The notes beneath the pieces are model-generated. The model saw only the letters and a program-made list of their open reading frames with translations. It searched no databases and was not told the DNA's origin. Source: a virus (lineage: Duplodnaviria; Caudoviricetes). Taken from it: a DNA stretch of 64,000 bases. This document shows, in pieces, positions 5,441 to 39,851 of this stretch. Where the stretch lies: IMG/VR virus record IMGVR_UViG_2850126897_000005, positions 1-64,000 of that record; one strand, given 5' to 3'. Within the stretch, counting starts at the first letter, position 1. The number at the start of each line of letters is the position of its first letter. The position numbers and the translations under genes were made by a program.

Positions 5441-6682
5441 TTACCCAACTAGCGATATCCCTCTTATCCCGCCTTCAATAATACTTCCTCTATCAGCCGC
5501 CTCGATAAAATCAGCCCACCATTGCATCATGGGGCGTCTTTGCTCTAGGTAGTCACTGCGATTATAGGCGCGTCTAACTTCGTTTTTATCGACGTGGGCG
5601 AGGGCGGCTTCAATCACATCAGGTGGGAAGCCTTGCTCATTGAGAGCGGTGCTGGCAATTGAGCGTAGGCCGTGTGAGACAAGTACACCGCCGAACCCAG
5701 CGCGTTTTAATGCTGCATTGACTGTTTGGCTATTCATCGGTTGGGTTGGCTTGATACGGCTAGGAAAGATAAACTCACGATTACCACTGAGTGGTTTCAT
5801 GAGTTCTAGAATAGCCAAAGCTGCACCAGATAACGGAACAGTATGTTCGCGGTTCATCTTCATTCTGGCAGCGGGTATCTTCCATTCCTTGGTTTCAAAG
5901 TTGATTTCGTCCCAACGGGCTTCAGCCGCTTCTGCAGGGCGGGAGATGGTGAGTAATTGCCACATGAACAAGCATCGAGTCGATAGGCTAATACTAGCTG
6001 TTCGCATTGTTTGCATGAGCTTTGGTAGCTGATCAGGGGGGATACTTGGCATATTCTTTTTCTTGGGCTTTTCAAAAGCCTTGCCAATGTTGATACTTGG
6101 AACGGCATCAATTAAGCCAGTATTTTGAGCATAGATCATCACTTCGTTAATACGCTGACAAAGGCGGCGAACAGTTTCAAGTGCGCCTCTGGCTTGAACG
6201 GGCTGTATTGCTTGAACCAATATATGGGCTTTGATATCGGTAACACTAATATCACCAATAGCGGGGAAGACATCTCTTTCAAGTGAACGCCAGATATCAT
6301 TACCATAATCTTCGGTTACGGTGGACTTCTTCACTTCCCACCAACGTTCAGCGACAAGTTGAAAGGTATTGGTTTTAGCCTCTTGAGAGTTTCTTATTTG
6401 ATCTTTTTGATATTCTTGAGGGTCAATATCTTTTACCAGTAATGAGCGAGACTCTGCTCTAAGTTTTCTAGCATCTGAAAGTGTGACCGCAGGGTAGGCC
6501 CCAAAACTTTGTTTGGTCCTTTGTTTTGTATACGGGCGGTAGTAACGGAATTGCCATAACTTGCTTCCGCTAGATTTGATTAGCAGTGTGAGTCCATCAC
6601 CATCATACAGCTGATAGTCCTTGTCCTGTGGTTTAGCTGCTTTGATTTCGGTATCGGTTAATGGCTTAGTTTTTCTTGCCAT
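5441..6682 (-). CDS. int: P4-family tyrosine integrase (IntA/CP4-57 type)
   Basis: MARKTKPLTDTEIKAAKP arm-binding N-terminus; ISR, HGLR, LAH and Y (RSDY) catalytic residues. Confidence 0.93.
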   Translation of the reverse strand: MARKTKPLTDTEIKAAKPQDKDYQLYDGDGLTLLIKSSGSKLWQFRYYRPYTKQRTKQSFGAYPAVTLSDARKLRAESRSLLVKDIDPQEYQKDQIRNSQEAKTNTFQLVAERWWEVKKSTVTEDYGNDIWRSLERDVFPAIGDISVTDIKAHILVQAIQPVQARGALETVRRLCQRINEVMIYAQNTGLIDAVPSINIGKAFEKPKKKNMPSIPPDQLPKLMQTMRTASISLSTRCLFMWQLLTISRPAEAAEARWDEINFETKEWKIPAARMKMNREHTVPLSGAALAILELMKPLSGNREFIFPSRIKPTQPMNSQTVNAALKRAGFGGVLVSHGLRSIASTALNEQGFPPDVIEAALAHVDKNEVRRAYNRSDYLEQRRPMMQWWADFIEAADRGSIIEGGIRGISLVG

Positions 6683-9419: not shown

Positions 9420-9583
9420 TTATTCACCTCAGCAATATCAATCCAACGTTCTTTTGAACCCTCAACTTTTAAAACATGTACACCGACTATCCAATATTGC
9501 CGTTGTATGCGCTTATTAATGGACTCTGGTGTTTCTCCGTACATATTGCAGTATGCGGAAATAGGCAAACATTCATATAACAT
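9374..9583 (-). CDS. xis: Excisionase
   Basis: Small wHTH-like ORF overlapping the int start; ATG at 9583. Confidence 0.7.
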   Translation of the reverse strand: MLYECLPISAYCNMYGETPESINKRIQRQYWIVGVHVLKVEGSKERWIDIAEVNKWARKNKQATHYQEG

Positions 9584-9656
9584 AATTTCCTCCCATATCC
9601 GCTTGCTTAATGTCGCGGAGAAATAAATCATAGCCTTCTGTGATATTTTGTCTCAT
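9573..9656 (-). CDS. 27-aa ORF overlapping xis start (not in track)
   Basis: GAGGCAAGACCAAG-ATG; MRQNITEGYDLFLRDIKQADMGGNYVI*. Confidence 0.45.
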   Translation of the reverse strand: MRQNITEGYDLFLRDIKQADMGGNYVI

Positions 9657-9834
9657 CTTGGTCTTGCCTCATCATTAATAAAATAAGTTGGTCAGCAATG
9701 TTGCAGGCATGCTTGATATCAGCTTTTGTACATGGTCTGTTTTTTACACTGGCAGCTAGCTTGCCTAACTTAATATCAAACTCAGTTAATAACTGTTCCT
9801 CGGGTGCCCAAGGGGTTAATTGTGGTTGTTTCAT
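9628..9834 (-). CDS. Phage hypothetical protein
   Basis: 68-aa ORF in leftward early operon. Confidence 0.55.
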   Translation of the reverse strand: MKQPQLTPWAPEEQLLTEFDIKLGKLAASVKNRPCTKADIKHACNIADQLILLMMRQDQDETKYHRRL

Positions 9835-9906
9835 GGTGGTTATCCATTGGTTTTGAATAAACCACCACAGTAAGAAAAAATGCAGAATAAAACTGATTAT
9901 GCTTAA

Positions 9907-10080
9907 TCAATTATTGGCCCGAATAATTGCTTCGATGGGATAGCATTCAGACAAAACACCTCGTTGAGTTAGGGCGTCTTTATCCATTAAACAATTCTGC
10001 TCATCGGGATAGGTATAGCCGTTAGATTTATATAAACAATCAGCACCACTGCAAATTAGCAGGAATAAACCATAAATCAT
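9907..10080 (-). CDS. DUF1482/YebW-like small protein (not in track)
   Basis: MIYGLFLLICSGADC...EQNCL...ECYPIE; ATGA overlap with upstream ORF. Confidence 0.6.
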   Translation of the reverse strand: MIYGLFLLICSGADCLYKSNGYTYPDEQNCLMDKDALTQRGVLSECYPIEAIIRANN

Positions 10081-10247
10081 TGTTTACTCCTTTGTAGTTC
10101 TGCCTGAGTAGGCTGTATTTCTATTCTAATATGTGCAGGAAAGTCATAAGAAACCTTGCAACGTCTATCTGTTGAAACAAACCCGTGCGAGCCATCGGGT
10201 AGGGTGATTTTGACTTCCTGGTCTTTTTGATGTTCGTGTCTTAGCAT
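10077..10247 (-). CDS. 56-aa phage protein (not in track)
   Basis: GAGGCAAGACCA-ATG; MLRHEHQKDQEVKITLPDGSHGFVSTDRRCKVSYDFPAHIRIE... Confidence 0.6.
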   Translation of the reverse strand: MLRHEHQKDQEVKITLPDGSHGFVSTDRRCKVSYDFPAHIRIEIQPTQAELQRSKQ

Positions 10248-10276
10248 TGGTCTTGCCTCGTTCGTGACATGTCACA

Positions 10277-10456
10277 TTAATGGATAACAGCCGGTGCCGT
10301 TGGGTAACCCAGTTGAAGTAACAACGCTTTTTTTACCAGTGATAGCGTTTGTTCTTCTTGGCGAGTGACTTGTTGAGTCGATGCTGTGGTCCACTCTACA
10401 CTGCATTTATTGTTAGCTTCATCGTGAGTGATGATGACTTCTAATTTCATGGCCAT
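10277..10456 (-). CDS. Phage hypothetical protein
   Basis: AGGAG RBS before ATG 10456. Confidence 0.55.
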   Translation of the reverse strand: MAMKLEVIITHDEANNKCSVEWTTASTQQVTRQEEQTLSLVKKALLLQLGYPTAPAVIH

Positions 10457-10501
10457 AAAAATATCTCCTGATAATGCGCCCATTGCAGGGCGCTATAGGT
10501 A

Positions 10502-11002
10502 TTAACGAACCTGTAGAGTACGTGCACCAGTTTCAAGGTGTGCACCATCTATAGTTTCACCTTTATCAATACGTTCTTTAATTGCTTTTTTATCGGGCGC
10601 AGTAATAGTTTGAACATCAACTAATTCGTCAGGAAGTAACGATTCATCATCAATGACAACGGATACAGTGCCTTTTCTTGCTGTAAAGGTATTTCTCAGT
10701 GTTTTTAAGCTATCTTTACCAGATGTTAATAAACACGTTAAGGCATACTGCTTTAAGTTTTTAATTTGATTATCAAATTGGTTTTTACGCTCAGCTAGGC
10801 GTTTAGATTCTTTACTTAGGGTTTCAGCTTGTCCTTCAATATTACGAACATGGACCATAATTGCGTCTAACTTGTCGCCTAATTCGCCCTCAAGACCCTC
10901 TAAGGTATCGGCAACATCCTCTGCTGTGAATTCACCTGTTTCGACGAGTTGTTGTAATTTGCTGTAGTCAGCAGCCATTGCAATAGCAGTTGTCTTGGTC
11001 AT
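10502..11002 (-). CDS. Siphovirus Gp157-family protein
   Basis: Coiled coil with DTLEGLEGE...K.D and C-terminal DKKAIKE...G.TIDGAHLE motif. Confidence 0.8.
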   Translation of the reverse strand: MTKTTAIAMAADYSKLQQLVETGEFTAEDVADTLEGLEGELGDKLDAIMVHVRNIEGQAETLSKESKRLAERKNQFDNQIKNLKQYALTCLLTSGKDSLKTLRNTFTARKGTVSVVIDDESLLPDELVDVQTITAPDKKAIKERIDKGETIDGAHLETGARTLQVR

Positions 11003-12966
11003 TAGATTGCCTCTTCTTTTTGTTTCAGTTGGTCTAAACACTCTTTTTCAATTTCATTTAGTCGGCGTAGACGGCCGTTTAAATATTTTTCATATTCACT
11101 GTCGCCACGTTGTTTGGCCAACTTGGCATGCGTTGATATTTCACGGGTGAGGGTGGATGTGATACCCCGTAATTCGTTTGGCGTCACTGCACTGCGCATC
11201 GTTTCAGTGTGTCGCGTGAACTTCTCATCTAACTCTTTGCGAATGCGGGTCGCATCTTCAGCGTTATCGCTGGCGGCTTTAATTTCATACTCGAGCTTAT
11301 TACTCGCCACATATTCAGGGTTATCATGCATTCCCATATAGACGTCAGAGCTAAAGCCAAGCATGGAAAGTGCTTTTTTGATGGAATCGGTGAGTGATTT
11401 TTTTATCACTTCACTGTCCGTTCTTATTCCTTGCTTGGTCTGATAGCGATAAGGTGTGGCACCGTAACTCTCAAACTCACCACGAGTTTCGCCTTCGATG
11501 ATGTACCAAAAGCGGATCTTGATTGAGTGATTTTGTTCAAAGAGTAATGTTCCATCCCCATCACGCAGGAACCTCATTGCGACTTGTTTATGGTGGGCAT
11601 CGAGTACGGGCTCGACAAGCGGCTTTCCATCAATCATTTTTTCTTCAATGATTTCATAACCCCAGCCTTCACCTATTGGGCCAAATATTTCAGTCGCACG
11701 CATAAACATATAGGTGCTGTTGATACTGGTACCAACAAAGCCCATACCATCAAGTGGTTTGGTAAAGCGTGAATCAGTACGTTGTACTTGCTTCCAAATA
11801 TTAAGGTGGTTTGTATTACCGCTATTAAGCACCTCATCAAGTACTGCTGCGCGTTGTTGAAAGTCATCTTGTTCAGTGGCAATTGGCGTAGGAACAACAG
11901 GTGTCTCAATCACAACTGGTTCTTTTTCTACTCTAGCCGGTGTGTCTTTTTTCTTGCTGGTGCGCTTTGGTTTCTCTGTTTTAGCCGGTTGCTCAGGTGT
12001 TTCATCATTAGCCGGCTTAGCATCTAAATTATCAACAGCGAAACGGCCACTACCGAGAGATGTTACTTTTGGGCTGTTGGCACTAAGTTTTGAATCGATA
12101 AACGCTTTACGGGCATTCGCATCATCAAATAGTTCGGGCTTTTCGCGTGCCTCAGCCACTAGTGCAAAGATGTTCTCGCGAGGGATATCTAGAACGCTAG
12201 GGAATGTGCGTAAATCCATTGATAAACGCTTCCATGCTTTATCTTCAGCGCTGATGAGTTCTTTTGCTTTGCGAATATCTGCACTTTTTGCATCGCTTGG
12301 TTTAACATCCATGAGAGCGAGGGCAATTTCGAGGTCAAGAGCGGCATAATCACGTTTAAGAACAGGCTCATCTTCAACGGGGGGTAGTTCAGGCTCCTCG
12401 GTTAACCAACTTTCACCAAGCGCCTTAGCTTCTTCGATAGTGACATTATCGTCAGCATACTCATAAACCGCCTGCGCGATTTCCATCGTGGCTTCAGCAT
12501 CCATTAATGAAACTTTGGTGATTTCAGCAAGGCCAGTGGCGATATGTCGAATCTTTGGCGCTTCTTTACTTTCATTGAGATATTTCAATGTTGAAGTGTA
12601 TTCATTATCAGTAATTTGAGTTTTACCAAACATCAGTAAAGCAGCTACGCGGGGTTTAGTTGCAAGCTTTTTAAATTCTTTATATTTAATGGGTTGCCAT
12701 TTTTCGCCGTCAAATTCATTTTCAACAGCAAATTTTTCATCGAACTGATCGAGCGCAGGGCGAGGGGAACCGACAGCATCCTCACAAATAATAGGCTCAT
12801 CGATATTAAAGTTATCCATAGAATCAGGGTAAGCTTCTGATAGCTTAATCATTGCTGTTGCTGCCGCAATTTTGGCATTCGCTGCATTGAAAGCGATGGT
12901 TAAAGGTATAGCGCCATTGGTTCGAGCCTCGGTCGTAGGCTCAAATACACAGATAAAAGTTGTCAT
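11002..12966 (-). CDS. RecE-N-like domain fused to Rad52/Sak-like single-strand annealing domain
   Basis: N-terminus resembles the exonuclease VIII N-region; C-terminal TSIN..Y...ATEIFGPIG.GWG and KK..TD.IKKALS.LGF..DVY motifs. Confidence 0.7.
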   Translation of the reverse strand: MTTFICVFEPTTEARTNGAIPLTIAFNAANAKIAAATAMIKLSEAYPDSMDNFNIDEPIICEDAVGSPRPALDQFDEKFAVENEFDGEKWQPIKYKEFKKLATKPRVAALLMFGKTQITDNEYTSTLKYLNESKEAPKIRHIATGLAEITKVSLMDAEATMEIAQAVYEYADDNVTIEEAKALGESWLTEEPELPPVEDEPVLKRDYAALDLEIALALMDVKPSDAKSADIRKAKELISAEDKAWKRLSMDLRTFPSVLDIPRENIFALVAEAREKPELFDDANARKAFIDSKLSANSPKVTSLGSGRFAVDNLDAKPANDETPEQPAKTEKPKRTSKKKDTPARVEKEPVVIETPVVPTPIATEQDDFQQRAAVLDEVLNSGNTNHLNIWKQVQRTDSRFTKPLDGMGFVGTSINSTYMFMRATEIFGPIGEGWGYEIIEEKMIDGKPLVEPVLDAHHKQVAMRFLRDGDGTLLFEQNHSIKIRFWYIIEGETRGEFESYGATPYRYQTKQGIRTDSEVIKKSLTDSIKKALSMLGFSSDVYMGMHDNPEYVASNKLEYEIKAASDNAEDATRIRKELDEKFTRHTETMRSAVTPNELRGITSTLTREISTHAKLAKQRGDSEYEKYLNGRLRRLNEIEKECLDQLKQKEEAI

Positions 12967-12978
12967 TGGTCTTGCCTC

Positions 12979-13311
12979 TTAATAAGGGATTTGTTCGTCA
13001 GTTTTAGAAATGGGTTTGCCTTCTAAACACAGCAGCATTTGGATCTGGTCTTCCAGTAAGCTTGATTTCACCTGCGCATCAGCAAGAATTTTGTTCTGCT
13101 CGGCTTTGAGTGCATTTATTTCTAACTGAACAAGTTCTGCATTGGTTGGTTCTGTAAAAGGAATTTCAGTAACGTGTTCAGCAATAACAAAGCCTAAACC
13201 TGATTTCACATCAGACTTAAATGCATAGGCGTTGAATTGATATGAACCATCAGGTTGCTTCTGTGCATGAATGTATAAGGTGACACTTAGGGTTTTAGGT
13301 TGTGCTTTCAT
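12979..13311 (-). CDS. Phage hypothetical protein
   Basis: AAGGAG RBS; 110 aa. Confidence 0.7.
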   Translation of the reverse strand: MKAQPKTLSVTLYIHAQKQPDGSYQFNAYAFKSDVKSGLGFVIAEHVTEIPFTEPTNAELVQLEINALKAEQNKILADAQVKSSLLEDQIQMLLCLEGKPISKTDEQIPY

Positions 13312-13334
13312 AGCAGCTCCTTTAAAATAACTGT

Positions 13335-13450
13335 GATCAGTGATTTATCATTGGTCTTGCCTCTTCTAGCGTTTGGTCGCGCTAGTAGAACTCTCGGTTA
13401 GCTTTGGTCGGCGACCCGAGGTAAAGGAACCCACTTCGGTGGGTTTTTTT
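13335..13450 (+). ncRNA. Candidate antisense small RNA
   Basis: Possible promoter TTGTGC(13300)-17 bp-TAAAAT(13323); anti-RBS segment; two hairpins with identical TTTGGTCG loops; cTTCGg terminator with T-run; 5' end inferred. Confidence 0.5.
13428..13450 (+). terminator. Intrinsic terminator, plus-strand oriented
   Basis: AACCCAC-TTCG-GTGGGTT followed by TTTTT. Confidence 0.8.
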
Positions 13451-13569
13451 ACGTCTATAATTTGTTGCCTGATTATTTAACCTCATCAGGCAGCTGAGGT
13501 TCTCGTGTACCCCTACAGCGAGAAATCGGCTAAAATATACTCTCCCCTACAGAATGAGAGTTTTTAGTT

Positions 13570-13788
13570 ATGAGTAATAACAGTATTCAACAGCAATTAG
13601 ATGCACAGCATATTTTAATAAAAGCGATTTTTAATGTGTTAACTTCCGAGCAAAAAGAAGAAGTTAAACATCAAATTGGGCATTTAAGTCAGGCTGCAAG
13701 ATATCCTCATATTTTGGAGTCGTTTAACTCAGAAAATGCGATAGAAGAAGCCCAGAATGCCGCATTGGATTTACTTCGTATTATATAA
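13570..13788 (+). CDS. Small cargo protein opposing the pL operon (sieB-like position)
   Basis: 72-aa ORF, opposite orientation, tail overlaps 13781-14095. Confidence 0.55.
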   Translation: MSNNSIQQQLDAQHILIKAIFNVLTSEQKEEVKHQIGHLSQAARYPHILESFNSENAIEEAQNAALDLLRII

Positions 13789-14095
13789 ATCCATCACCTA
13801 GCGACCAGTTATGCCTATTTTCTTTAATTATGGTCGCTATTTCTTCATCAATAATGGCTTGATGCTTGTTGATTTCCTCAATCAATTTACGTCCTTGGCC
13901 AATAACTTTGATTCTTGTGTAGAGAAACGCATCAGTCAGCAAATCGATCCTGTCTTTAATATCCTGAAGACTACTCCCTTCATTCGCCATTCTAGGTATC
14001 ATGCTTGTGGCAATAACATTAATGTCACTCAGCACAAACCCGACGTAGTTTTTTATTTTTGCTATTTCATCTTCGTTGTTAACTTTGTTGTCCAT
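13781..14095 (-). CDS. First ORF of leftward early operon, hypothetical
   Basis: AGGA RBS; 104 aa. Confidence 0.6.
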   Translation of the reverse strand: MDNKVNNEDEIAKIKNYVGFVLSDINVIATSMIPRMANEGSSLQDIKDRIDLLTDAFLYTRIKVIGQGRKLIEEINKHQAIIDEEIATIIKENRHNWSLGDGFI

Positions 14096-14227
14096 ATTTA
14101 TTTCCTATTTTGATTATATTGCCCGTCTTTCCGAACTGTCAGGTCTTGCCTCTGGCTTTGGTCTAAAAATCTTATCTGGTACTACTAAAAATTTGGTTTG
14201 AACACCTGACTAAACACTTGCTGTGTT

Positions 14228-14313
14228 TGTTTAAACAGTAAAACTTATTTAACTGAGATTAAGTTTAATTAATCAAACAGAAGAGTCAAGGAAAAAGTTC
14301 GTAAAATTAAACT
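14228..14313. promoter_or_regulatory. OL operators / pL region
   Basis: Three 18-bp sites of consensus WGTTY-N8-AAACW at 14228, 14262, 14296 (34-bp period); minus-strand TTGACT...TAAACT. Confidence 0.7.
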
Positions 14314-14329
14314 TATTTTCTTTGAGCGT

Positions 14330-14358
14330 AAAAAAACCCACGCACGGTGGGCTTTTCT
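14330..14358. terminator. Bidirectional terminator downstream of cI
   Basis: A-run, CCCAC-GCACG-GTGGG, T-rich tail. Confidence 0.7.
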
Positions 14359-14370
14359 TTAATTGTTGGT

Positions 14371-15027
14371 CTATATCAAATCTTGTTCTATTCGAACACA
14401 CACACCTATAATTTCACAGGCATCATCAAAAGGGATCGGTTTATAATTAGGGTTGATTGGCATTAAATATTCATTGGGCCCATCAACAACATATTGTTTT
14501 ACCGTTGTTTCATTACTATCTTTTAATCGGGCAACGACAATCCGACCATTATAAATATCCTTTTCAGGGTCTACTATGACAATAGCCCCTTCTGGTATTG
14601 AGATGCGACTACGACCAGTTGTATCTACCATTGAATTCCCTACTACTCGCAAGGAAAATGAACTACCTGAAACTTTAGCGGTTGTTTCAATCCACTCGGT
14701 AAACTCGTCAAAACGCTGCTCAATCATGTCTTTCCATCGCCCTGCTTGTACATAGGAAACTAGTGGAACTCTCCTAGTTATATCAGGACCAAGAGTTACA
14801 TTCCCTTTAATTTCCTCAATCAACCCTCCATCTATTAGCCACTTCTCAGTGACTCCAAGTACAGTTGCTAATGATGATAAGAATTTTGCAGACGGCTCGG
14901 TACCACCGTTAACCCACTGGCTGACGGTTCCTTTTGATGCGCCTGTCGCATCCATGATGTGCTTACTTTTTAATTTTAACTCCCGCATCCTCAGGTTAAT
15001 GCGGTCGCTCATTGTTTGTATTGTCAT
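14371..15027 (-). CDS. cI: CI-like repressor with S24 autopeptidase domain
   Basis: HTH (GASKGTVSQW), VQAG cleavage site, GNSM Ser and TVK Lys catalytic residues. Confidence 0.92.
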   Translation of the reverse strand: MTIQTMSDRINLRMRELKLKSKHIMDATGASKGTVSQWVNGGTEPSAKFLSSLATVLGVTEKWLIDGGLIEEIKGNVTLGPDITRRVPLVSYVQAGRWKDMIEQRFDEFTEWIETTAKVSGSSFSLRVVGNSMVDTTGRSRISIPEGAIVIVDPEKDIYNGRIVVARLKDSNETTVKQYVVDGPNEYLMPINPNYKPIPFDDACEIIGVCVRIEQDLI

Positions 15028-15090
15028 GTTTATATAATTAAACAAATTAAGTTTAATTTCTTGACTTTCTATAGTTTATTTATTTAAACT
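15027..15090. promoter_or_regulatory. OR operators / pR region
   Basis: Three related 18-bp sites at 15027, 15050 (degenerate) and 15073 (23-bp period); TTGACT at 15061 and TAAACT at 15085. Confidence 0.7.
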
Positions 15091-15119
15091 TTAGACCGTT
15101 TAAATAAATGGAGAAAACG

Positions 15120-15305
15120 ATGAAAAAGCAAGATGTCCTTAAATATTTTGGCGGTACAACAAAAACTGCCACTGCATTAGGTGTTTCAAAATCAACAGTA
15201 AGCCTATGGAAGGAAACTATCCCTTGGAAATATGCACTATTGATTGAAAAAATCACTAACGGTTCATTGTTAGCGAGTATACCTACAAATCCAGTTTTAA
15301 ATTGA
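15120..15305 (+). CDS. cro: Cro-like repressor
   Basis: KYFGG..KTA.ALGVSKSTVSLW HTH, divergent from cI. Confidence 0.85.
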   Translation: MKKQDVLKYFGGTTKTATALGVSKSTVSLWKETIPWKYALLIEKITNGSLLASIPTNPVLN

Positions 15306-15343
15306 TTTGTCTTAATCAATTTTGCGACAGGAGACGCGAGTAG

Positions 15344-15799
15344 ATGAATTTTGATATCGATATTGTCCGCTCTGAAATTGAGAGCTGGGCTACAGAACAT
15401 GGTCAAGAGCATGTGGCGATAGAGATAAGCCGTGCGTATTTGCAGATCACACGAGACAAATCACAGAGCCGCTTGCATGTGATTGAAGATGAACGAGGGC
15501 AAGCGGATTGGAAAGCGATTAACAATAACCGACAGCAGATATTTCGTTGGTTGCGAGGCGATTCGAACGCATCAATGAAGAAATTAGCAGAGCTGATGCC
15601 TGCGATTGAAATGGCGTTGCCAGCTTCGAGGTTAGCTCGAGTGCGAGGCGACACTAAAAACTATTTAGCATCAGTGGCCATACAGCGATTTGCAGAAGCT
15701 ATGACCGAAATTTTATTAGAGGGGCGTGACATGTCACACCGAATAAATAATGCCGTTAACGCACTCAATGCAATATCACGCCCGACCAGCGTGCACTAA
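15344..15799 (+). CDS. CII-position regulator, YdaT-like
   Basis: Position after cro; NNRQQIFRWL motif. Confidence 0.65.
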   Translation: MNFDIDIVRSEIESWATEHGQEHVAIEISRAYLQITRDKSQSRLHVIEDERGQADWKAINNNRQQIFRWLRGDSNASMKKLAELMPAIEMALPASRLARVRGDTKNYLASVAIQRFAEAMTEILLEGRDMSHRINNAVNALNAISRPTSVH

Positions 15800-15816
15800 T
15801 TCAAGAGGCAAGACCA

Positions 15817-16041
15817 ATGCTAAGAACGACTGAATTGATTACCTATTGCAATGGTTTTTTATTGAATGGAAAGCCAGCAGACAGAAAACAAATCGAAGAT
15901 ATTTTCGAGGGAAGAAGGGCGATAGCGCTCAATATTGGGGAGCAATACGAACAACAAAAACAAAAGCTACTTTTAAAGAAATTGTCGCCTGAGCAGTACC
16001 AGAACGCTTGTCGCGATATCGCTAAAGCGCTGGGGGTGTGA
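15817..16041 (+). CDS. Phage hypothetical protein abutting replication gene
   Basis: GAGGCAAGACCA-ATG; stop is 1 nt before the O start. Confidence 0.7.
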   Translation: MLRTTELITYCNGFLLNGKPADRKQIEDIFEGRRAIALNIGEQYEQQKQKLLLKKLSPEQYQNACRDIAKALGV

Positions 16042-16042
16042 A

Positions 16043-16873
16043 ATGAGACCATCAGACTTGTTACTCGATTTTGGGCGACCAGTGGCTTACTACCCTGGTC
16101 TTGTTAAACGCTTTGGTAGCGTCAATGCGGTGATATTTTTCAGCCAGATATTTTATTGGCAGGATAAAACGGATTCTGAATTAGGGGTCTATAAGTCATC
16201 TGAGGACATTACGGCCGAAACGGGGTTAAGCTATCGCGAGCAACTCACCGCCAGAAAGCACCTCGTTAAACGTGGGATTTTAATTGAAACGGATAGGCGT
16301 TTAGAACACAAAATATATTACCGTATAGATTGTGACCAACTTGACCAAATAATGTCGCAACCTATTGATAAAGTCCCAAATGCGCAAAGCGCAATCGGGG
16401 AAAGTCACAATGGGGATTTGGCGAAACAACAAAATGAACAGCCGCCACAAGACAAATTCGACGGTGGCGGTGAAACAAATCCGCAGTTCGATCCTACAGA
16501 GATTACAACAGAGAATACTACAGAGAATACTAATGGTACGTCAGGTCGTGCTGACGAACCCAAACCATCATCAAAAATAAAATTAGATTATGGCTCTATC
16601 CTTGAGGCTTATCACTGCATTCTGCCTGATATGCCATCGGTTAAAGTGATGACTGATGCACGAAAACGGACGCTGAGAAACTTTTGGCTAAAATTTAAAT
16701 TTAACCAGGAACGTTGGGAAAATTACTTGTCGTACATTGCGAATCATTGTCGCTGGATGACAGAAGATCGTGATAACGGCCGTGGTGGTTTATGGCGTCG
16801 CAAGAACTTGGATTACCTGATCACTGAACGCTGCTATGTGGCGGTCAAGGAGGAGCGAGCCAATGACAAATAA
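16043..16873 (+). CDS. Replication initiator (O-like)
   Basis: N-terminal wHTH; TEIT-TENT-TENT linker (12-bp repeats ~16496-16531); C-terminal YH.ILPDMP / NLDYL motifs. Confidence 0.8.
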   Translation: MRPSDLLLDFGRPVAYYPGLVKRFGSVNAVIFFSQIFYWQDKTDSELGVYKSSEDITAETGLSYREQLTARKHLVKRGILIETDRRLEHKIYYRIDCDQLDQIMSQPIDKVPNAQSAIGESHNGDLAKQQNEQPPQDKFDGGGETNPQFDPTEITTENTTENTNGTSGRADEPKPSSKIKLDYGSILEAYHCILPDMPSVKVMTDARKRTLRNFWLKFKFNQERWENYLSYIANHCRWMTEDRDNGRGGLWRRKNLDYLITERCYVAVKEERANDK

Positions 16874-18272
16874 TTATTTTGTTCCTCCCTGTAACCTTGA
16901 AGCTGAACAAGCGGTTTTAGGTGGTTTGATGATTAGCACAGACGAAGATAAGCGTCAGCATGTTATTTCGCTAATTAAACCTGAATCATTCTATCAGTGG
17001 TCACATAATCGGATTTTTGCAGAGATAGTTCGACTGATTAAAACCAATCAGCCTACTGATGTAATTACCGTAAGCGATGCGCTAACAGCTAATGGTGATT
17101 TAGACAATGTTGGTGGATTCGCCTATGTCGCTGAGCTTTGCATGTTACCAACAGCAGCAAACATAGTGAATTATGCAAGGATCATTCGTGATAAGGCCAT
17201 ACAGCGTTATGCGATTAATAATCTCAATAATTGCGTTGAAATGTTGATGGCCAATGATGGGCTTGAAGTGAGTAATAAACTCGCTAATGTACAGCAAGTT
17301 GTTTCAAGTATTATTGAACATGCGAAAACTGGAAAAAGTAAAGGGCTTAGACCTGCTCGTGATGTAGTAGAGGACTGGATTGAAGAAGTTGAAAGGCGTT
17401 TTGATGATCCGACGAATGCCGCTGGTTTTACTTTAGGTATCGAATCACTTGATGACTTAATGGCTCCCAAGCAAGCGCTAAGAGGATCTTTAATCGTTGT
17501 GGGTGCTAGACCTAAAATGGGAAAAACAGCTTTCTACAACCGCGTAGCCACACATTTTGCCCTAAACCATCGGTTACCTACATTGTTGTTTAGTTTGGAA
17601 ATGACGGACAGGGGGATCATTGAGCGCATGATTGCTCAAGAGGGGGGAGTCTCCGCAGATATATTCTATACCGGTGCGCATGATGATATGGAAATGGCGC
17701 GGGCGTTAGCAAGAGCTGAAGAAATCGCAGAGTCGAATATGTACATCGACAGCACTCCTGGTGTTGATTTGCACCATATTATTGCGGAGTGTCGAAAGGT
17801 AAAAAGAGTTAAAGGGAAAATTGGGCTCATTGCTGTGGATTACCTGACATTAATCAAAGCTGCCCCAGCAGAACGCCGCGATATTGCCTACGGTGACATT
17901 ACAACAGGTTTAAAAAACTTAGCCAAGGAAATGGATTGTGTGGTCCTGTTACTTACCCAGCTTAACCGTAAACTGGAAGAACGAGCTGATAAACGACCAA
18001 CACCTGCAGATAGTCGAGATACAGGACAAATTGAGCAAGATTGTGATGTTTGGATAGGTTTATACCGTGATGCGGTTTATAACAACAATGCAGATAAATC
18101 GTTGATGGAAATTATTCTTCGTTTAAATCGTGATGGTAACACTGGAACCGCTCATGGGCAGCTGGTGGATTCGTATATCAAAAATATTAGCCAAGGTGAG
18201 GTGGAAAGGTTGTCGTTTAAGGGGCTGGACAAAGGAAGAGGATATTTAAAGAAAGGGACGCAAGCGTTTTGA
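16863..18272 (+). CDS. Replicative DNA helicase, DnaB-like
   Basis: EAEQAVLGG, GARPKMGKT Walker A, DYL, QLNR, IEQDCD. Confidence 0.92.
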   Translation: MTNNYFVPPCNLEAEQAVLGGLMISTDEDKRQHVISLIKPESFYQWSHNRIFAEIVRLIKTNQPTDVITVSDALTANGDLDNVGGFAYVAELCMLPTAANIVNYARIIRDKAIQRYAINNLNNCVEMLMANDGLEVSNKLANVQQVVSSIIEHAKTGKSKGLRPARDVVEDWIEEVERRFDDPTNAAGFTLGIESLDDLMAPKQALRGSLIVVGARPKMGKTAFYNRVATHFALNHRLPTLLFSLEMTDRGIIERMIAQEGGVSADIFYTGAHDDMEMARALARAEEIAESNMYIDSTPGVDLHHIIAECRKVKRVKGKIGLIAVDYLTLIKAAPAERRDIAYGDITTGLKNLAKEMDCVVLLLTQLNRKLEERADKRPTPADSRDTGQIEQDCDVWIGLYRDAVYNNNADKSLMEIILRLNRDGNTGTAHGQLVDSYIKNISQGEVERLSFKGLDKGRGYLKKGTQAF

Positions 18273-18351
18273 GTTATTCGTTGATTAATAGATATAGCTT
18301 ATCTTTTAGGTATAATGTTTATAGTCATAAAATAGATGAAAGATAATATTA

Positions 18352-19041
18352 ATGAAAAAAAATTTTAGTAAATTGGAAGAAAAATTTAAACATTTCATAT
18401 CAACAAGTCTGGGGAGCATATGTTTAGATGATATGAAAGAAAGTTTTGAAAAAGGAGATGGCAGGCAATATCAAATGGCTGATTTTCTTCTCAAAAAGGA
18501 TAAAATTATTTTAGAAATGAAGACATTATTTAGCGATAGAAGTCAAATTGTTAATGAAAAGCTTAATGATTTAACAAAAACAGATTTGTGGTTGAAAAAT
18601 AATTGGTATGGTGAAGTTCCTTTAGAGGAGTTAATTGAAAAACATCCTAATTCTGTTCAGTTTAGACAAAAAATATTAGATTTTGCGTATAGAAATATTA
18701 AAGAAAATATATTAAAAAAAGCGAACGAACAATTAGGGATTACAAAAAAAATTCTATCTATACCCAAAACGATAGGGGGGTTAGTATTACTGAATGACAA
18801 AGTCGTATCTTATGATTCAAACCACCTTAGTACTGAAATATTATTTCACCTTAAAACTGGTAAATTTGAAAGTATTGATTTTGTTATATTTATATCGGAA
18901 ATAAATGAAGGTTATATTGACCTTAATTTACTTTTAAATAGCAGTACAGGTAATGATGAGTATGTTAAATGGTATTTTGAAAGCAACTTTATGTTCAAAT
19001 GGGCATCATATAATAATGCGGGAATACAAATGCATAGATAA
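18352..19041 (+). CDS. Cargo protein, possible PD-(D/E)xK nuclease fold
   Basis: ADFLLKKDKIILEMK (D-x9-E-x-K); AT-rich. Confidence 0.45.
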   Translation: MKKNFSKLEEKFKHFISTSLGSICLDDMKESFEKGDGRQYQMADFLLKKDKIILEMKTLFSDRSQIVNEKLNDLTKTDLWLKNNWYGEVPLEELIEKHPNSVQFRQKILDFAYRNIKENILKKANEQLGITKKILSIPKTIGGLVLLNDKVVSYDSNHLSTEILFHLKTGKFESIDFVIFISEINEGYIDLNLLLNSSTGNDEYVKWYFESNFMFKWASYNNAGIQMHR

Positions 19042-19077
19042 AAGCATGGAGTATAAATTTAAAATGGAACAGAAATA

Positions 19078-19896
19078 ATGAATATTAAAGATATAGAGTC
19101 AGAAGAAGGAATGATTTTATGGAGAGGATGTTTAAATAGCCATTTAAATCATTTGATTGAAAATTTAGAAGTTGTTAGAAATAGTAATAACTATAGAGTC
19201 GTTAAGTTATATCCATTGTATGCATCTATTATAGAAGATATTATTTCGTTAGATATTCTGACAAAACACTCTAGGTTAAATCAATGCTATATAATATCGA
19301 GGGCTCTCTTGGAAAGAGTAATCAATTATTGTTATTTGCTTTATGCCTCAAATGAAGAGTATGAATCATATGTTGATTATACTAAAAATAAAGCAGCCCG
19401 AAGCTTGTCTAGAAGTATAGAACTAGATGGCGTTAAGAAAGTTAGCGTGGAGTTTGCTAATGGTTATTATGAATTACCAGAAGATTATAAAAAAGCCGTT
19501 GATAAATTTACTAGTAAAAATGGAAAGGAAATACCTCGATGGACAAGTTTAAATATAGATAAAAGAGCTATTTTTCTTGATGAAAAGTCAGGGAAGAATC
19601 TGCTATTACATGTTCTTATGATATATGGTGACGCGTCAGAAGCTTTACATGGTACCCTTTACGGGGCATTGTTTCATTTGGGAACCTATAATATTGGTTC
19701 AATACCAACAGATCAAAATTCACTTGATGAACATAGAAACAGCGCATTATCTTTTTTATATTTCATGGCAAGCTCTGCTATTGGAACGTTATTTTTTGCT
19801 TTAAAGGATAATGGCGTTGAAGTTAATGAGTCATATGAGCAGATGGAATCTAAATTTAAAAGTGTGACTATTAATACTGGTCTGGCTAAATCATAA
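19078..19896 (+). CDS. Cargo protein, DUF5677/HEPN-like
   Basis: SRALLE.VIN..YL and YGDASEALHG motifs; all-helical. Confidence 0.55.
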   Translation: MNIKDIESEEGMILWRGCLNSHLNHLIENLEVVRNSNNYRVVKLYPLYASIIEDIISLDILTKHSRLNQCYIISRALLERVINYCYLLYASNEEYESYVDYTKNKAARSLSRSIELDGVKKVSVEFANGYYELPEDYKKAVDKFTSKNGKEIPRWTSLNIDKRAIFLDEKSGKNLLLHVLMIYGDASEALHGTLYGALFHLGTYNIGSIPTDQNSLDEHRNSALSFLYFMASSAIGTLFFALKDNGVEVNESYEQMESKFKSVTINTGLAKS

Positions 19897-19906
19897 TTAG
19901 GCTGAG

Positions 19907-20617
19907 GTGATTATGGATGTTAATTGGATGAGTAAGTTTGATTGGGGTATTGCCATTGCAATTTTATCACTGTTATTTACTACAGTTGTTAGCTTTATTA
20001 CAATCCGATATACAAAAAAATCTTTAGAGTACACCAAAAAGTCTGTACAGATTGCAAATGATTCATTAGATGCAACGACAAAATCAGTTGTTACCTCGAT
20101 CGAGATTTATGAACGCCAAAAAAAAGACGATTTTGAAAAAGAAAATACAATAACAAGATCGGAGAAGAAAGCTTTGAATTATTTGATTTATACTGAAGCT
20201 AATGGTAATTTTATTGTTTTTCAGCCTGTTTTCGATTTTTGTACTTTTATTAGAAGTAATAAAGTAAAATACTATTTATATAATAACAAGGGGAGCGAAT
20301 CATTTTTAAAGTACGCTGTAAATGATAATGAAGAGATTGCTTTCTTGTTTTCAAAACAATCTTTAGATGTAATAGATAAATATTTACTTGATACTGCCAG
20401 AGTAGACAGCATATTAGTTGAAAAGTTAGTTTTACTAAAAATTAGTACATTAACATATAATAACTCATTTATTATCGCCTTAGAAACCATGATGAAAGCT
20501 AATTTAGATAAAAATGAATTAATGGATTTTATAAATAAGTGGATGGTGTTTGTTTCAGCATATAATAAACAATATAAAGATATAATAGACTATTGTAAGC
20601 TAAACATGAAATTGTGA
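19907..20617 (+). CDS. Cargo protein with N-terminal TM helix and coiled coil
   Basis: WGIAIAILSLLFTTVVSFITI hydrophobic segment. Confidence 0.6.
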   Translation: MIMDVNWMSKFDWGIAIAILSLLFTTVVSFITIRYTKKSLEYTKKSVQIANDSLDATTKSVVTSIEIYERQKKDDFEKENTITRSEKKALNYLIYTEANGNFIVFQPVFDFCTFIRSNKVKYYLYNNKGSESFLKYAVNDNEEIAFLFSKQSLDVIDKYLLDTARVDSILVEKLVLLKISTLTYNNSFIIALETMMKANLDKNELMDFINKWMVFVSAYNKQYKDIIDYCKLNMKL

Positions 20618-20701
20618 TATGATTATATTTAATATATAATAGTTACACTATTGGTTTGAACACCCAATCTTAACACTTGCTGTGTCTACTGAGAGAAACG
20701 T

Positions 20702-21295
20702 ATGGCACAGCATAGCTTTATCAAAATGTCTAACGACACTCTTGTACCGGCTAATCCAGCGGCAAGGGATTTTTTGCATTCCAAAATCAAGTGTGGTGAT
20801 GTGCTTTCGGCTGATTTCAAGAAAGCTCGTAACCCTCGTTTTCACCGTAAATACTTCGCTTTACTCAATCTAGGGTATGAATACTGGGAACCAACCGGCG
20901 GTACCATTTCGCCTGAAGAAAAAGAATTGGTTCGTGGTTACGTTAAATTCCTTGCTTACTACACAGATAACGACGATGCCCTCCAATCCGCTGCAGATGT
21001 TTACTTAGACGATGTAGCACAGAAACGCGCTCACAATATTTCAGCGACCAAATCCTTTGATGCTTTCCGCTATTGGGTAGTAGAGCAATCAGGCCATTAT
21101 GAAACTTTTGAAATGCCAGACGGTAGCCTACGCCGCGTGGCTAAATCAATCAGCTTTGCCAAAATGGATGACCTAGCCTTTGGCGAACTCTACAAATCCA
21201 CACTTGATGTGCTCTGGAACTTCATTTTATTCCGCAAATTCCCCACTCAAGAAGCTGCTGAAAATGCGGCGGCTCAGTTATTAGATTTTACCTAG
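20702..21295 (+). CDS. DUF1367-family phage protein
   Basis: KARNPRFHRKYFALLNLGYEYWEP...SISFAKMD. Confidence 0.8.
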   Translation: MAQHSFIKMSNDTLVPANPAARDFLHSKIKCGDVLSADFKKARNPRFHRKYFALLNLGYEYWEPTGGTISPEEKELVRGYVKFLAYYTDNDDALQSAADVYLDDVAQKRAHNISATKSFDAFRYWVVEQSGHYETFEMPDGSLRRVAKSISFAKMDDLAFGELYKSTLDVLWNFILFRKFPTQEAAENAAAQLLDFT

Positions 21296-21306
21296 AGGCA
21301 AGACCA

Positions 21307-21621
21307 ATGACCAAGAAATCAAAGACCAAAGAAGATAAACAGTGGCTATCAGATGTGGCCGCACTTGGCTGTATCTGCTGCCGCAATATGGGATATGGCG
21401 CAACCCTCGCGGAAATCCATCATGTAAGAACAGGGCAGGGAATGGCGCAGCGAGCTAGCCATAAAGACGTTTTACCGTTATGCCCACATCATCACAGGCC
21501 TAGTTATGACACTGGTTTTCATGCAGCGCCTAAAACATGGCAGGAAATTCACGGTACCGAAATCGAGTTACTGGAACAAACGAAAAGAGAAGTCATGGAG
21601 CTGCGCGCATGTCGAGTATAA
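21307..21621 (+). CDS. Ref-like HNH nuclease
   Basis: CICC...EIHH...LPLCPHHH. Confidence 0.7.
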   Translation: MTKKSKTKEDKQWLSDVAALGCICCRNMGYGATLAEIHHVRTGQGMAQRASHKDVLPLCPHHHRPSYDTGFHAAPKTWQEIHGTEIELLEQTKREVMELRACRV

Positions 21622-22969: not shown

Positions 22970-23167
22970 ATGTTAAAACAGATTGATATGACAGAAGAGG
23001 CAAAAATTGTTTTAGAAGTTGTTCCACACTCCTGGTGGGCAACAATAGAAGAAATCTCAAGTTACACTGAATTAGCAAAATCACGCTGTCAGTTGATATT
23101 AACGCAACTAGCAATGGCGGGATTTATCAAAGAAAACATCGAAGAAAATACATTTCAAAATATCTAG
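22970..23167 (+). CDS. Small winged-helix protein
   Basis: TIEEISSYTELAKSRCQLILTQL..AGFIK. Confidence 0.6.
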   Translation: MLKQIDMTEEAKIVLEVVPHSWWATIEEISSYTELAKSRCQLILTQLAMAGFIKENIEENTFQNI

Positions 23168-39768: not shown

Positions 39769-39851
39769 ATTTAGAAGAGGCAATGGACTTGTGGGAAATT
39801 GCCATCACTAACCGTTATAACGAAGCCCTTGCGGCTTCAAAGGATAGATAA
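39615..39851 (+). other. Programmed -1 frameshift site (T TTT TTC) and extension frame of tail chaperone
   Basis: Slippery heptamer at 39615-39621; -1 frame open to TAA 39849-39851 (...VIVSERLATFTELKTSIDLEEAMDLWEI...). Confidence 0.75.

Follow-up and report, generated by a model that had tools for sequence, protein, structure and literature searches.

A repeated translation-start tag in the early region of a lambdoid prophage and the complementary, predicted IsrB-family small RNA encoded in the same prophage

IsrB is a small RNA of the Salmonella prophages Gifsy-1 and Gifsy-2 (Rfam RF01386), where its gene adjoins one for a RecE-type exonuclease and runs antisense to the flanking genes (PMC2330248). 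In Cluster K mycobacteriophages, repeated elements named Start-Associated Sequences (SAS) have been described (PMC3203893). The c4 antisense RNA of P1/P7 (immI) pairs around a ribosome-binding site and, through coupling, shuts off the downstream gene, and its sequence specificity defines immunity groups (PMC12197685). The stoperators of mycobacteriophage L5 are DNA sites of the immunity repressor, 13 bp long and asymmetric, which recur in short gaps between genes and point in the direction of transcription; these traits recall the motif reported here, which, in contrast, is independent of the immunity module and fixed relative to an ATG.

The window analysed is a stretch of 64,000 nucleotides of viral DNA, from a prophage of the Providencia/Proteus type. 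An earlier, sequence-only reading had reported in it seven exact copies of GAGGCAAGACC, confined to the early region and each co-oriented with transcription, and all of this was confirmed, with copies at 9660, 10249, 12968, 13353 and 14142 on the minus strand and at 15805 and 21295 on the plus strand. Dinucleotide shuffles lead to an expectation of 0 copies, and a search of the whole 83-kb provirus record gave no eighth one; by allowing up to two mismatches, just four additional matches were obtained, which is the chance level. The 11-mer is the core of a translation start of 15-18 nt, (A)AGAGGCAAGACCAAUG(A), in which GAGG, as the Shine-Dalgarno sequence, is separated from the AUG by an invariant spacer of 8 nt. 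Five of the seven copies read GAGGCAAGACCAATG, the copy at 9660 reads ...ACCAAGATG, and the one at 14142 has no ATG. The tag stands before five or more early genes, located in both arms of the early region; the copies and related sites are as follows:

9660..9670, minus strand: motif copy 1; its ATG (9656-9654) opens orf27
10249..10259, minus strand: motif copy 2, translation start of orf56 (10077-10247, phrog_2482)
11007..11017, minus strand: partial tag AGAAGAGGCAA, preceding the Gp157 ATG (11002)
12968..12978, minus strand: motif copy 3, translation start of the 654-aa exonuclease exo654 (11002-12966)
13353..13363, minus strand: motif copy 4, opening only the 4-codon MINH*, an antisense imprint of the sRNA seed
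14142..14152, minus strand: motif copy 5, in the predicted pL leader
15777..15793, plus strand: hairpin CACGC-CCGACCA-GCGTG, at the 3' end of the cII-like gene and just upstream of copy 6
15805..15815, plus strand: motif copy 6, translation start of orf74 (15817-16041, phrog_2465)
21295..21305, plus strand: motif copy 7, translation start of the Ref-like HNH gene (21307-21621)

The arrangement of reading frames that had been drawn around xis, O, Q and Gp157 proved correct by coordinates. Thus, orf27 (9573-9656) overlaps the xis start at 9631, the stop of orf74 at 16041 lies 1 nt before the start of O (16043), and the Ref-like ORF (to 21621) overlaps the start of Q, with no Shine-Dalgarno sequence at either of its candidate positions, 21537 and 21609. 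The stop of exo654 and the Gp157 ATG overlap as TAATG at 11002, with GAGGCAATCTA just before; the 654-aa protein had been taken for a recombinase, and its matches are instead to phage exonuclease families (phrog_2489). Copy 1 is located inside the 3' end of a 68-aa gene (9628-9834), copy 3 directly follows the TAA stop of orf110, and copy 5, which may be a decoy site, abuts a strong promoter-like site (CTGACA-18-TATAAT, 14142-14113). Copy 4 was rejected as a gene start, as the coding of its mini-ORF is not conserved and its nucleotide sequence is; this “seventh copy” is the other strand of an sRNA gene. The proposal that one signal gates excision, recombination, replication and late antitermination stands insofar as several tag-opened ORFs are placed to pass translation to xis, Gp157, O and Q, but it missed the likely gatekeeper, a plus-strand IsrB-family sRNA complementary to the motif.

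The view of the motif as a translation-start element is supported by relatives: of 314 copies there, 297 have an ATG at +0 to +3, and no fewer than 12 recurrent ORF families, unrelated to one another, have a copy in front. Over 742 kb, the mismatch spectrum comprises 269 exact copies, 38 with one mismatch (control, 3) and 92 with two (control, 92). By using loci fetched by protein and not by motif, the per-site diversity was estimated at 0.02-0.04 in the motif, whereas first and second codon positions gave 0.08-0.13 and third positions 0.29-0.37. In homologues with 39-40% protein identity and unrelated upstream DNA, the tag is kept with one change; the motif of exo654 is retained at this same distance (39-40%), and most of 80 homologues of the Ref-like gene, at 72-98% protein identity, have the exact motif. 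Both motif and layout are common to prophages of Providencia, Proteus, Xenorhabdus and Photorhabdus, despite differing cI and cro. The motif is an analogue of the SAS and not a member: both are short asymmetric repeats with a Shine-Dalgarno core inside, located a few nucleotides upstream of an ATG, in one orientation, before non-structural genes of unrelated families only, and both are conserved beyond the needs of rRNA pairing, while the SAS, with the consensus GGGATAGGAGCCC, are unrelated to the motif in sequence, phage group and host phylum. The copy number is 7 in the window versus 11-19 for SAS, and the phage described here itself encodes a complementary sRNA, whereas SAS have no known partner.

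This sRNA gene has the following elements, all on the plus strand:

13300..13328: candidate sigma-70 promoter of the sRNA (TTGTGC, 17 nt, TAAAAT)
13335-13449: IsrB-family sRNA of ~115 nt, a predicted transcript (Rfam isrB, covariance model, covariation)
13335-13356: hairpin SL0
13349-13363: anti-tag CATTGGTCTTGCCTC
13357-13361: exposed UUGCC
13362-13389: hairpin SL1, loop UUGGUC
13390-13422: hairpin SL2, loop UUUGGUCG
13428-13445: intrinsic terminator, followed by a U run

The Rfam isrB model matched the plus strand at 13324-13449 with 30.3 bits, below the RF01386 gathering score of 35 (E value of 0.036 over 14 kb and of 0.00082 over 321 nt). With the covariance model R1, 58 matches were found, and the element is present in every multi-copy locus covering the left arm. 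One common set of four hairpins appeared in the folds of 13/13 representatives; 98.3% of the cells are paired and 15 pairs changed on both sides, the covariation score was reached by none of 500 shuffles, and slid controls were 27-47% paired. Read as the minus strand, the same alignment is 87.4% paired against 98.3% for the plus strand, a difference due to G.U pairs, which place the hairpins on the plus strand; the pL operon is on the other strand. Since compensatory and G.U changes preserve SL0, in which the anti-tag is included, the anti-tag belongs to a structured RNA. The candidate promoter overlaps the Shine-Dalgarno sequence and ATG of orf110 on the opposite strand, and a -10 hexamer (TAAAAT, TATATT or TATACT) occurs at the same position in every lineage; the expression, 5' end and abundance of the sRNA are predictions. 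The minus-strand CGACCAAA loops, put forward earlier as sponge or nut-like sites, turn out to be the reverse complement of the UUGGUC loops of this RNA.

Like IsrB, the element lies in a lambdoid prophage, within the leftward early operon, adjoining a RecE-type exonuclease gene and antisense to both flanks: in the window, the sRNA is on the plus strand and orf110 and, downstream, exo654 are all on the minus strand, and in Gifsy-2 IsrB, which scores 99.3 bits, lies between STM1009 (exonuclease VIII) and STM1010. Both have a promoter, here a candidate one, overlapping the start of the downstream gene, and both have SL2 with a GCUUUGGUCGG loop followed by the CCCACUUCGGUGGG terminator and a U run, conserved in the 58 matches. 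However, the element here is longer (~115 nt versus 88/94 nt) and has an extra 5' domain with SL0, the anti-tag and SL1, which IsrB lacks. No repeated ribosome-binding tag was found in Gifsy-2, and the complementarity of IsrB to the early region of that prophage does not exceed 10 nt, so tag pairing is not the general mode of action of the IsrB family.

The 5' domain UCAUUGGUCUUGCCUCUU of the sRNA is the perfect complement of the tag, and at every copy other than the one on its own opposite strand the contiguous complementarity extends over 12-18 nt:

Copy 1 (9660): 13 nt, cofold ddG -15.3
Copy 2 (10249): 15 nt, ddG -18.9
Gp157 partial tag: 11 nt, to the exposed part of the sRNA, ddG -10.8
Copy 3 (12968): 18 nt, ddG -16.0
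Copy 5 (14142): 12 nt, ddG -12.3
Copy 6 (15805): 17 nt, ddG -21.8
Copy 7 (21295): 17 nt, ddG -15.3

The net cofold gain is -15 to -22 kcal/mol at tagged starts, in comparison with 0 to -8 at 19 untagged early starts. Half of the anti-tag is sequestered within SL0, and the toehold of the sRNA is ~0.9 unpaired. In a distant lineage represented by four contigs (sRNA GC ~62%), each contig has 4-6 tags and every one is GAGGCAAAACC; in 4/4 of them the sRNA seed is UUGGUUUUGCCUC and the SL1 loop has changed from UUGGUC to GUGGUU. This covariation of seed and target comes from one evolutionary lineage, and gene conversion among repeats could in principle be its source, although it leaves the change of the SL1 loop without explanation.

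These observations suggest that the motif is probably an address tag for trans-repression by the sRNA. The exposed UUGCC(UCUU) would dock onto the GAGGCAA of the tag, SL0 would open and the duplex would grow across the spacer and AUG (12-18 bp), thereby blocking 30S binding at orf27, orf56, exo654, orf74 and the Ref-like gene, and translational coupling would carry the repression to Gp157, O, Q and possibly xis. A single sRNA would then probably be able to shut down excision, recombination, replication and late-gene activation at once. On this reading the spacer would be invariant because all copies must remain complementary to one RNA. Its role might be that of a lock against leaky early transcripts in lysogens, or that of a timing device titrated by pL transcripts, which carry its full complement and the 14142 site.

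The parallel with c4 concerns a phage antisense RNA acting at ribosome-binding sites with shut-off mediated by coupling, which is a prediction here. While c4 is processed from the transcript of its target, acts in one operon and uses two short loop sequences, the sRNA has its own promoter-like site on the opposite strand and matches 5-7 sites in both early operons; the Rfam search returned no C4 match at E values up to 1, and membership of the c4 type was therefore rejected. By analogy with immI/c4 of P1/P7, it may tentatively be proposed that tag and sRNA form an RNA-based second immunity system of lambdoid prophages. The sRNA of a resident prophage would then block the translation of all tagged early genes, both on the prophage's own leaky transcripts and on those of superinfecting relatives that share the tag but differ in their cI/cro module. 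Prophages with the G-to-A tag and the seed that fits it would fall into an RNA-immunity group of their own. Once induction sets in, the sRNA would be titrated by the leader site of pL together with the complete antisense stretch, and a switch would result.

If true, repression through the tag would mean that a prophage sRNA of the IsrB family has, for the first time, a predicted function and a set of targets, and it would give a concrete answer to what reads repeated, over-conserved ribosome-site motifs, the question raised by SAS-type elements. It would also represent a compact post-transcriptional layer over the cI/Cro switch, by which excision, recombination, replication and late antitermination are reached via one tag, conserved in prophages of the clinically and ecologically important Morganellaceae. 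The natural G/A pairs of tag and seed are ready orthogonal pairs, which makes the idea directly testable.

Rather unlikely, though the likeliest of the alternatives, is that the motif is a cis-acting, optimised ribosome-binding cassette, SAS-like and read by the ribosome or another factor, with the complementarity arising as a by-product of an sRNA gene that overlaps an ancestral orf110 start and with an sRNA acting only in cis on the pL transcript. In 5 loci the 13353-type ATG opens an N-extended orf110 of 123-126 aa, so a copy of this type was once a real start, and in Salmonella IsrB is a cis-antisense RNA overlapping the 5' end of the flanking gene (PMC2330248), without trans targets in Gifsy-2. 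The SAS are themselves repeated motifs linked to ribosome-binding sites and have no known partner (PMC3203893). Orphan tags function without a detectable sRNA: the tag of the Ref-like gene is present as well in prophages and genomes that gave no sRNA match (3 of 5 genomes), where it thus works as an ordinary ribosome-binding site. Also at odds with the sRNA reading, the Ref-like genes of Photorhabdus have a tag variant with two mismatches, while the sRNA seed is the standard one. However, a Shine-Dalgarno sequence and its spacing need no invariant 8-nt spacer, and the motif is tighter than codon positions 1 and 2. Moreover, the variant lineage changed tags, seed and SL1 loop together, and the compensatory and G.U maintenance of SL0 makes the anti-tag part of a structured RNA.

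It was also suggested that the motif is mainly a short boundary or linker promoting the exchange of gene modules between related phages through homologous recombination, its identity being kept by repeated recombination or gene conversion, as proposed for short conserved flanking sequences in lambdoid phages (PMC2327257). The proposal captures the position of five of the seven copies, at or near recurrent breakpoints. Four coincide with recurrent homology breakpoints at 9652-9654 (where homology starts in 32 loci), 10257-10264, 12972-12983 and 14153 (where homology ends in 13 loci), and a fifth cluster lies ~100 nt from the 13353 copy, a coincidence inflated by the partly motif-based selection of the loci. 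The int-xis module, with its junction at copy 1 (9660), and the immunity region, the left edge of its swap being at 14153 beside copy 5, are exchanged exactly at a copy. Nevertheless, at least eight equally strong clusters at gene boundaries are motif-free (15299, 16047, 18223, 20650, 20702, 21620, 22213 and 22890), and no breakpoint falls at the copies at 15805 and 21295. Second-order selection can hardly be expected to keep 11-15 nt invariant in four genera, and both the sRNA and the constant placement of the motif with respect to the ATG are left unexplained, making a boundary function improbable.

CsrA/RsmA sites have a GGA core, usually in a hairpin loop and overlapping the Shine-Dalgarno sequence; no GGA was found in GAGGCAAGACCAAUG, the hairpins are on the opposite strand, and GACCAA is enriched on the coding strand window-wide, late genes included, and is not early-specific, so the earlier suggestion of a CsrA-like protein reading GACCAA is not supported. 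A protein site of any kind, whether for such an RNA-binding protein or for a DNA-binding repressor as at the L5 stoperators, whose asymmetry, co-orientation with transcription and short intergenic gaps it would share (contrasted in PMC3203893), is very improbable, since prophages whose cI, cro and operators are unrelated have the motif in unchanged form (the swap being bounded at 14153 and 15299), which means that the immunity repressor is not its reader, and searches of Pfam, PHROGs, PDB and Atlas gave no candidate motif-binding protein.

The hairpin at 15777..15793, just upstream of copy 6, has a stem that covaries and a loop, nnGACCA, that is retained in relatives. Its GACCA is complementary to the UGGUC of the sRNA loops, and from this match we infer that the hairpin might be a kissing partner of these loops.

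The window contains exactly seven copies of the 11-mer GAGGCAAGACC, and an exact search confirmed the positions and strands reported in the sequence-only reading:

9660, minus strand: copy at the start of orf27
10249, minus strand: copy at the start of orf56
12968, minus strand: copy at the start of exo654, the 654-aa exonuclease gene
13353, minus strand: copy at a very short ORF
14142, minus strand: copy without an ATG
15805, plus strand: copy at the start of orf74
21295, plus strand: copy at the start of the Ref-like gene

Dinucleotide shuffles of the window gave no copy, the whole 83-kb provirus record holds none beyond the seven, and allowing two mismatches added only four matches, which is the chance level. 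Read in the direction of the motif, the sequence continues as GAGGCAAGACCAATG in five of the seven copies and as ...CCAAGATG in one. These continuations define the unit, or tag: GAGG as the Shine-Dalgarno sequence, then a spacer fixed at 8 nt and a start codon. In many cases the tag directly abuts the stop of the preceding gene. In every published paper that contains the 11-mer, it serves as a primer for human GPX4 and has no bearing here. The early genes are organized in two divergent sets:

Leftward: integrase, excisionase, small ORFs, Gp157, 654-aa exonuclease, orf110, cI-type repressor
Rightward: Cro, cII-like YdaT-family protein, orf74, O, DnaB, three unknown genes, NinB, Ref-like HNH protein, Q

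The gene overlaps described from the sequence alone are correct; the identification of the 654-aa protein as a recombinase was not borne out, gene identification giving an exonuclease. When the 15-kb early region was compared with deposited phages by megablast, the sole DNA-level match was a lambda-like stretch of about 100 nt.

The one match from an Rfam search of the early region was to isrB (13324-13449, plus strand), scoring 30.3 bits against a gathering score of 35. It spans a hairpin whose loop is GCUUUGGUCGG and the CCCACUUCGGUGGG terminator, followed by a U run. Positions 13349-13363 of the plus strand read CATTGGTCTTGCCTC, the exact complement of the 15-mer that extends the motif, and the 13353 copy opens an ORF of only four codons that is not conserved as coding sequence; this copy is therefore predicted to be the other strand of a gene for a small RNA (sRNA) of about 115 nt, at 13335-13449. 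Representatives from four genera, 13 in all, share one fold of four hairpins (SL0, SL1, SL2 and the terminator), and a covariance model found the element in every multi-copy locus covering the left arm. Among 27 distinct sequences, 98.3% of cells were paired, with 15 pairs changed on both sides; none of 500 shuffles reached the covariation score, and slid controls were 27%–47% paired. With G.U in 106 of the 962 cells, the plus strand accommodates the helices better (98.3%) than does the minus strand (87.4%). A −10 hexamer (TAAAAT, TATATT or TATACT), at 13323-13328 in the window, stands at the same position in all lineages. The alignment was made with the covariance model, as RNAalifold on a plain MAFFT alignment, in which the region was misaligned, missed SL1. 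A blastn search of deposited phages with the 3′ half of the sRNA gave no match; among 151 genomes of the order, a search with a covariance model scored few candidates and yielded only four weak matches of 31–34 bits. The genes orf110 and orf74 always accompany the sRNA; both found nothing in PDB sequence searches, and an Atlas search with orf110 returned unnamed clusters only. In one sub-lineage of related prophages (loci L035, L121 and others) the sRNA reads CCGUUGGUCUUGCCUC and so lacks the anti-AUG; there the 5′ arm of SL0 has changed in compensation, which preserves the hairpin and alters the extent of pairing.

Contiguous perfect complementarity to the 5′ domain of the sRNA extends over 18 nt at exo654, 17 at both orf74 and the Ref-like gene, 15 at orf56, 13 at orf27 and 12 at the 14142 site; AGAAGAGGCAA, which precedes Gp157, has 11 complementary nt. 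By cofolding, which includes the cost of opening SL0 and any structure in the target, tagged starts gave −15 to −22 kcal/mol, Gp157 −10.8 and the 14142 site −12.3, against 0 to −8 for 19 untagged early starts. These cofold differences and the contiguous-match counts were used instead of RNA duplex energies with the whole sRNA, which discriminated poorly (background median −23 kcal/mol). Between SL0 and SL1, UUGCC is predicted to be about 0.9 unpaired, so that it could plausibly act as a toehold.

The seed and the tags also change together. In a distant lineage, whose sRNA has a GC content of about 62%, each contig has four to six tags, all of which read GAGGCAAAACCAATG; several copies of this variant occur in just four contigs of the viral collection, and all four have the sRNA seed UCAUUGGUUUUGCCUC, a covariation that counts as one evolutionary lineage. 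Gene conversion could have homogenised the 15-mers in these contigs. Such a process would leave the SL1 loop unchanged, yet in all four this loop reads GUGGUU rather than UUGGUC, and its complementarity to the variant tag is kept. Repression in trans of the tagged starts by the predicted sRNA is, in our judgement, the somewhat favoured reading. No account of the sRNA or of such a tag-and-sRNA arrangement was found in the literature searched, nor any paper linking IsrB to Morganellaceae.

The 15-mer was found in at least 119 stretches of viral contigs, many of them multi-copy; single-hit contigs carry little meaning, since a control scan with a one-letter variant gave about 100 single matches as chance background. 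In 297 of 314 copies the motif is followed by an ATG at +0 to +3, and the ORFs so opened group into 32 clusters, of which 12 recur and are unrelated to one another. Over 742 kb of multi-copy loci the mismatch spectrum is very sharp, with 269 exact copies, 38 with one mismatch (3 for the reversed motif) and 92 with two (92 for the reversed motif). Because these loci had been selected by the motif, homologues of three downstream genes were also fetched by protein. In them, per-site diversity was 0.02–0.04 in the motif, 0.19–0.29 upstream, 0.08–0.13 at codon positions 1 and 2, and 0.29–0.37 at position 3, and GAGGCAAAACCAATG is still present before exonuclease homologues of 39%–40% identity with unrelated upstream DNA. 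Mapping in related prophages, as the sequence-only reading had suggested, showed its early-only, co-oriented layout recurring in Providencia, Proteus, Xenorhabdus and Photorhabdus (one genome per species), where copies on the minus strand lie to the left of the immunity region, those on the plus strand lie to its right and the late genes are free of exact copies. These relatives have cI and cro genes unrelated to those of the window. The motif is thus under direct selection, and it is not a site read by the immunity repressor. The tag also works as an ordinary ribosome site, since that of the Ref-like gene occurs where the sRNA was not found and has drifted in Photorhabdus.

The proposal that the motif marks recombination boundaries was weakly supported when breakpoints were mapped. 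Four copies fall on recurrent ends of homology between phages, among them 9652-9654, where the int-xis junction falls, and 14153, which bounds the immunity swap on its left. Another breakpoint cluster, the fifth, is some 100 nt away from the copy at 13353. However, at least eight clusters of equal strength sit at motif-free boundaries, and the copies at 15805 and 21295 are not breakpoints; the motif may thus serve as microhomology now and then, which is insufficient as an explanation. The minus-strand CGACCAAA loops, earlier proposed as nut-like or sponge sites for an RNA-binding protein, are the reverse complement of the plus-strand UUGGUC loops of SL1 and SL2, and a nut/boxB reading was rejected for three reasons: the hairpins come after one that resembles a terminator, pL does not begin with an N-like gene, and the G.U pattern indicates the other strand. 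Pairing with 16S rRNA past the Shine-Dalgarno sequence is an unlikely explanation of the motif and was set aside.

Among known systems, IsrB belongs to the same family by synteny and 3′ structure, although the sRNA of the window lies below the family threshold and has a new 5′ domain. In Salmonella Gifsy-2, the start of IsrB lies downstream of the sbcA ribosome site, no target is repeated, and complementarity between IsrB and the Gifsy-2 early region does not exceed 10 nt; the multi-target 5′ domain is therefore specific to the present lineage. That ribosome site, GAGGACAAAACAATG (5955-5993 of the Gifsy-2 locus L288), has the layout of the tag (GAGG, 8 nt, ATG), lies under the IsrB promoter and is not repeated elsewhere in Gifsy-2. 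The c4 RNA of P1 and P7 follows the same principle, with a blocked ribosome site and effects through coupling. The SAS repeats of Cluster K mycobacteriophages are the same kind of motif as the tag and have no known partner (PMC3203893).

Several further features were observed. On the plus strand at 15777-15793, within the last codons of the cII-like gene, lies a hairpin (CACGC-CCGACCA-GCGTG) whose stem covaries in relatives (ATGCGC-ATGACCA-GCGCAT) with the GACCA loop kept; because CCGACCA exactly complements UGGUCGG of the SL2 loop, the two loops may make contact. Outside the early region, the plus strand has matches of 11–12 nt to the exposed part of the sRNA at 22993-23003 and 39772-39783 (AGAAGAGGCAA and TAGAAGAGGCAA; about 0.5 expected by chance). 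In Proteus loci L266, L268, L269 (11017) and L270 (11682), a one-mismatch copy, GAGGCAAGACT, is followed by TGTTTT, without an ATG, about 1–1.7 kb downstream of the Ref-like gene. On the minus strand, 14113-14142 holds a promoter-like site close to consensus (CTGACA-18-TATAAT, 11 of 12 matches), its −35 element abutting the 14142 copy and the orf104 start lying about 10 nt downstream. In relatives the equivalent copy and the sRNA copy are separated by only about 135 nt, so that orf104 and the plus-strand 72-aa ORF (13570-13788) appear to be an insertion. The lambda-like stretch, at 13462-13561 between the sRNA terminator and the 72-aa ORF, shares 82%–84% identity with phage lambda 34393-34490, directly upstream of sieB, as well as with many lambdoid phages; a lysogen-expressed gene may have its conserved promoter or leader here.
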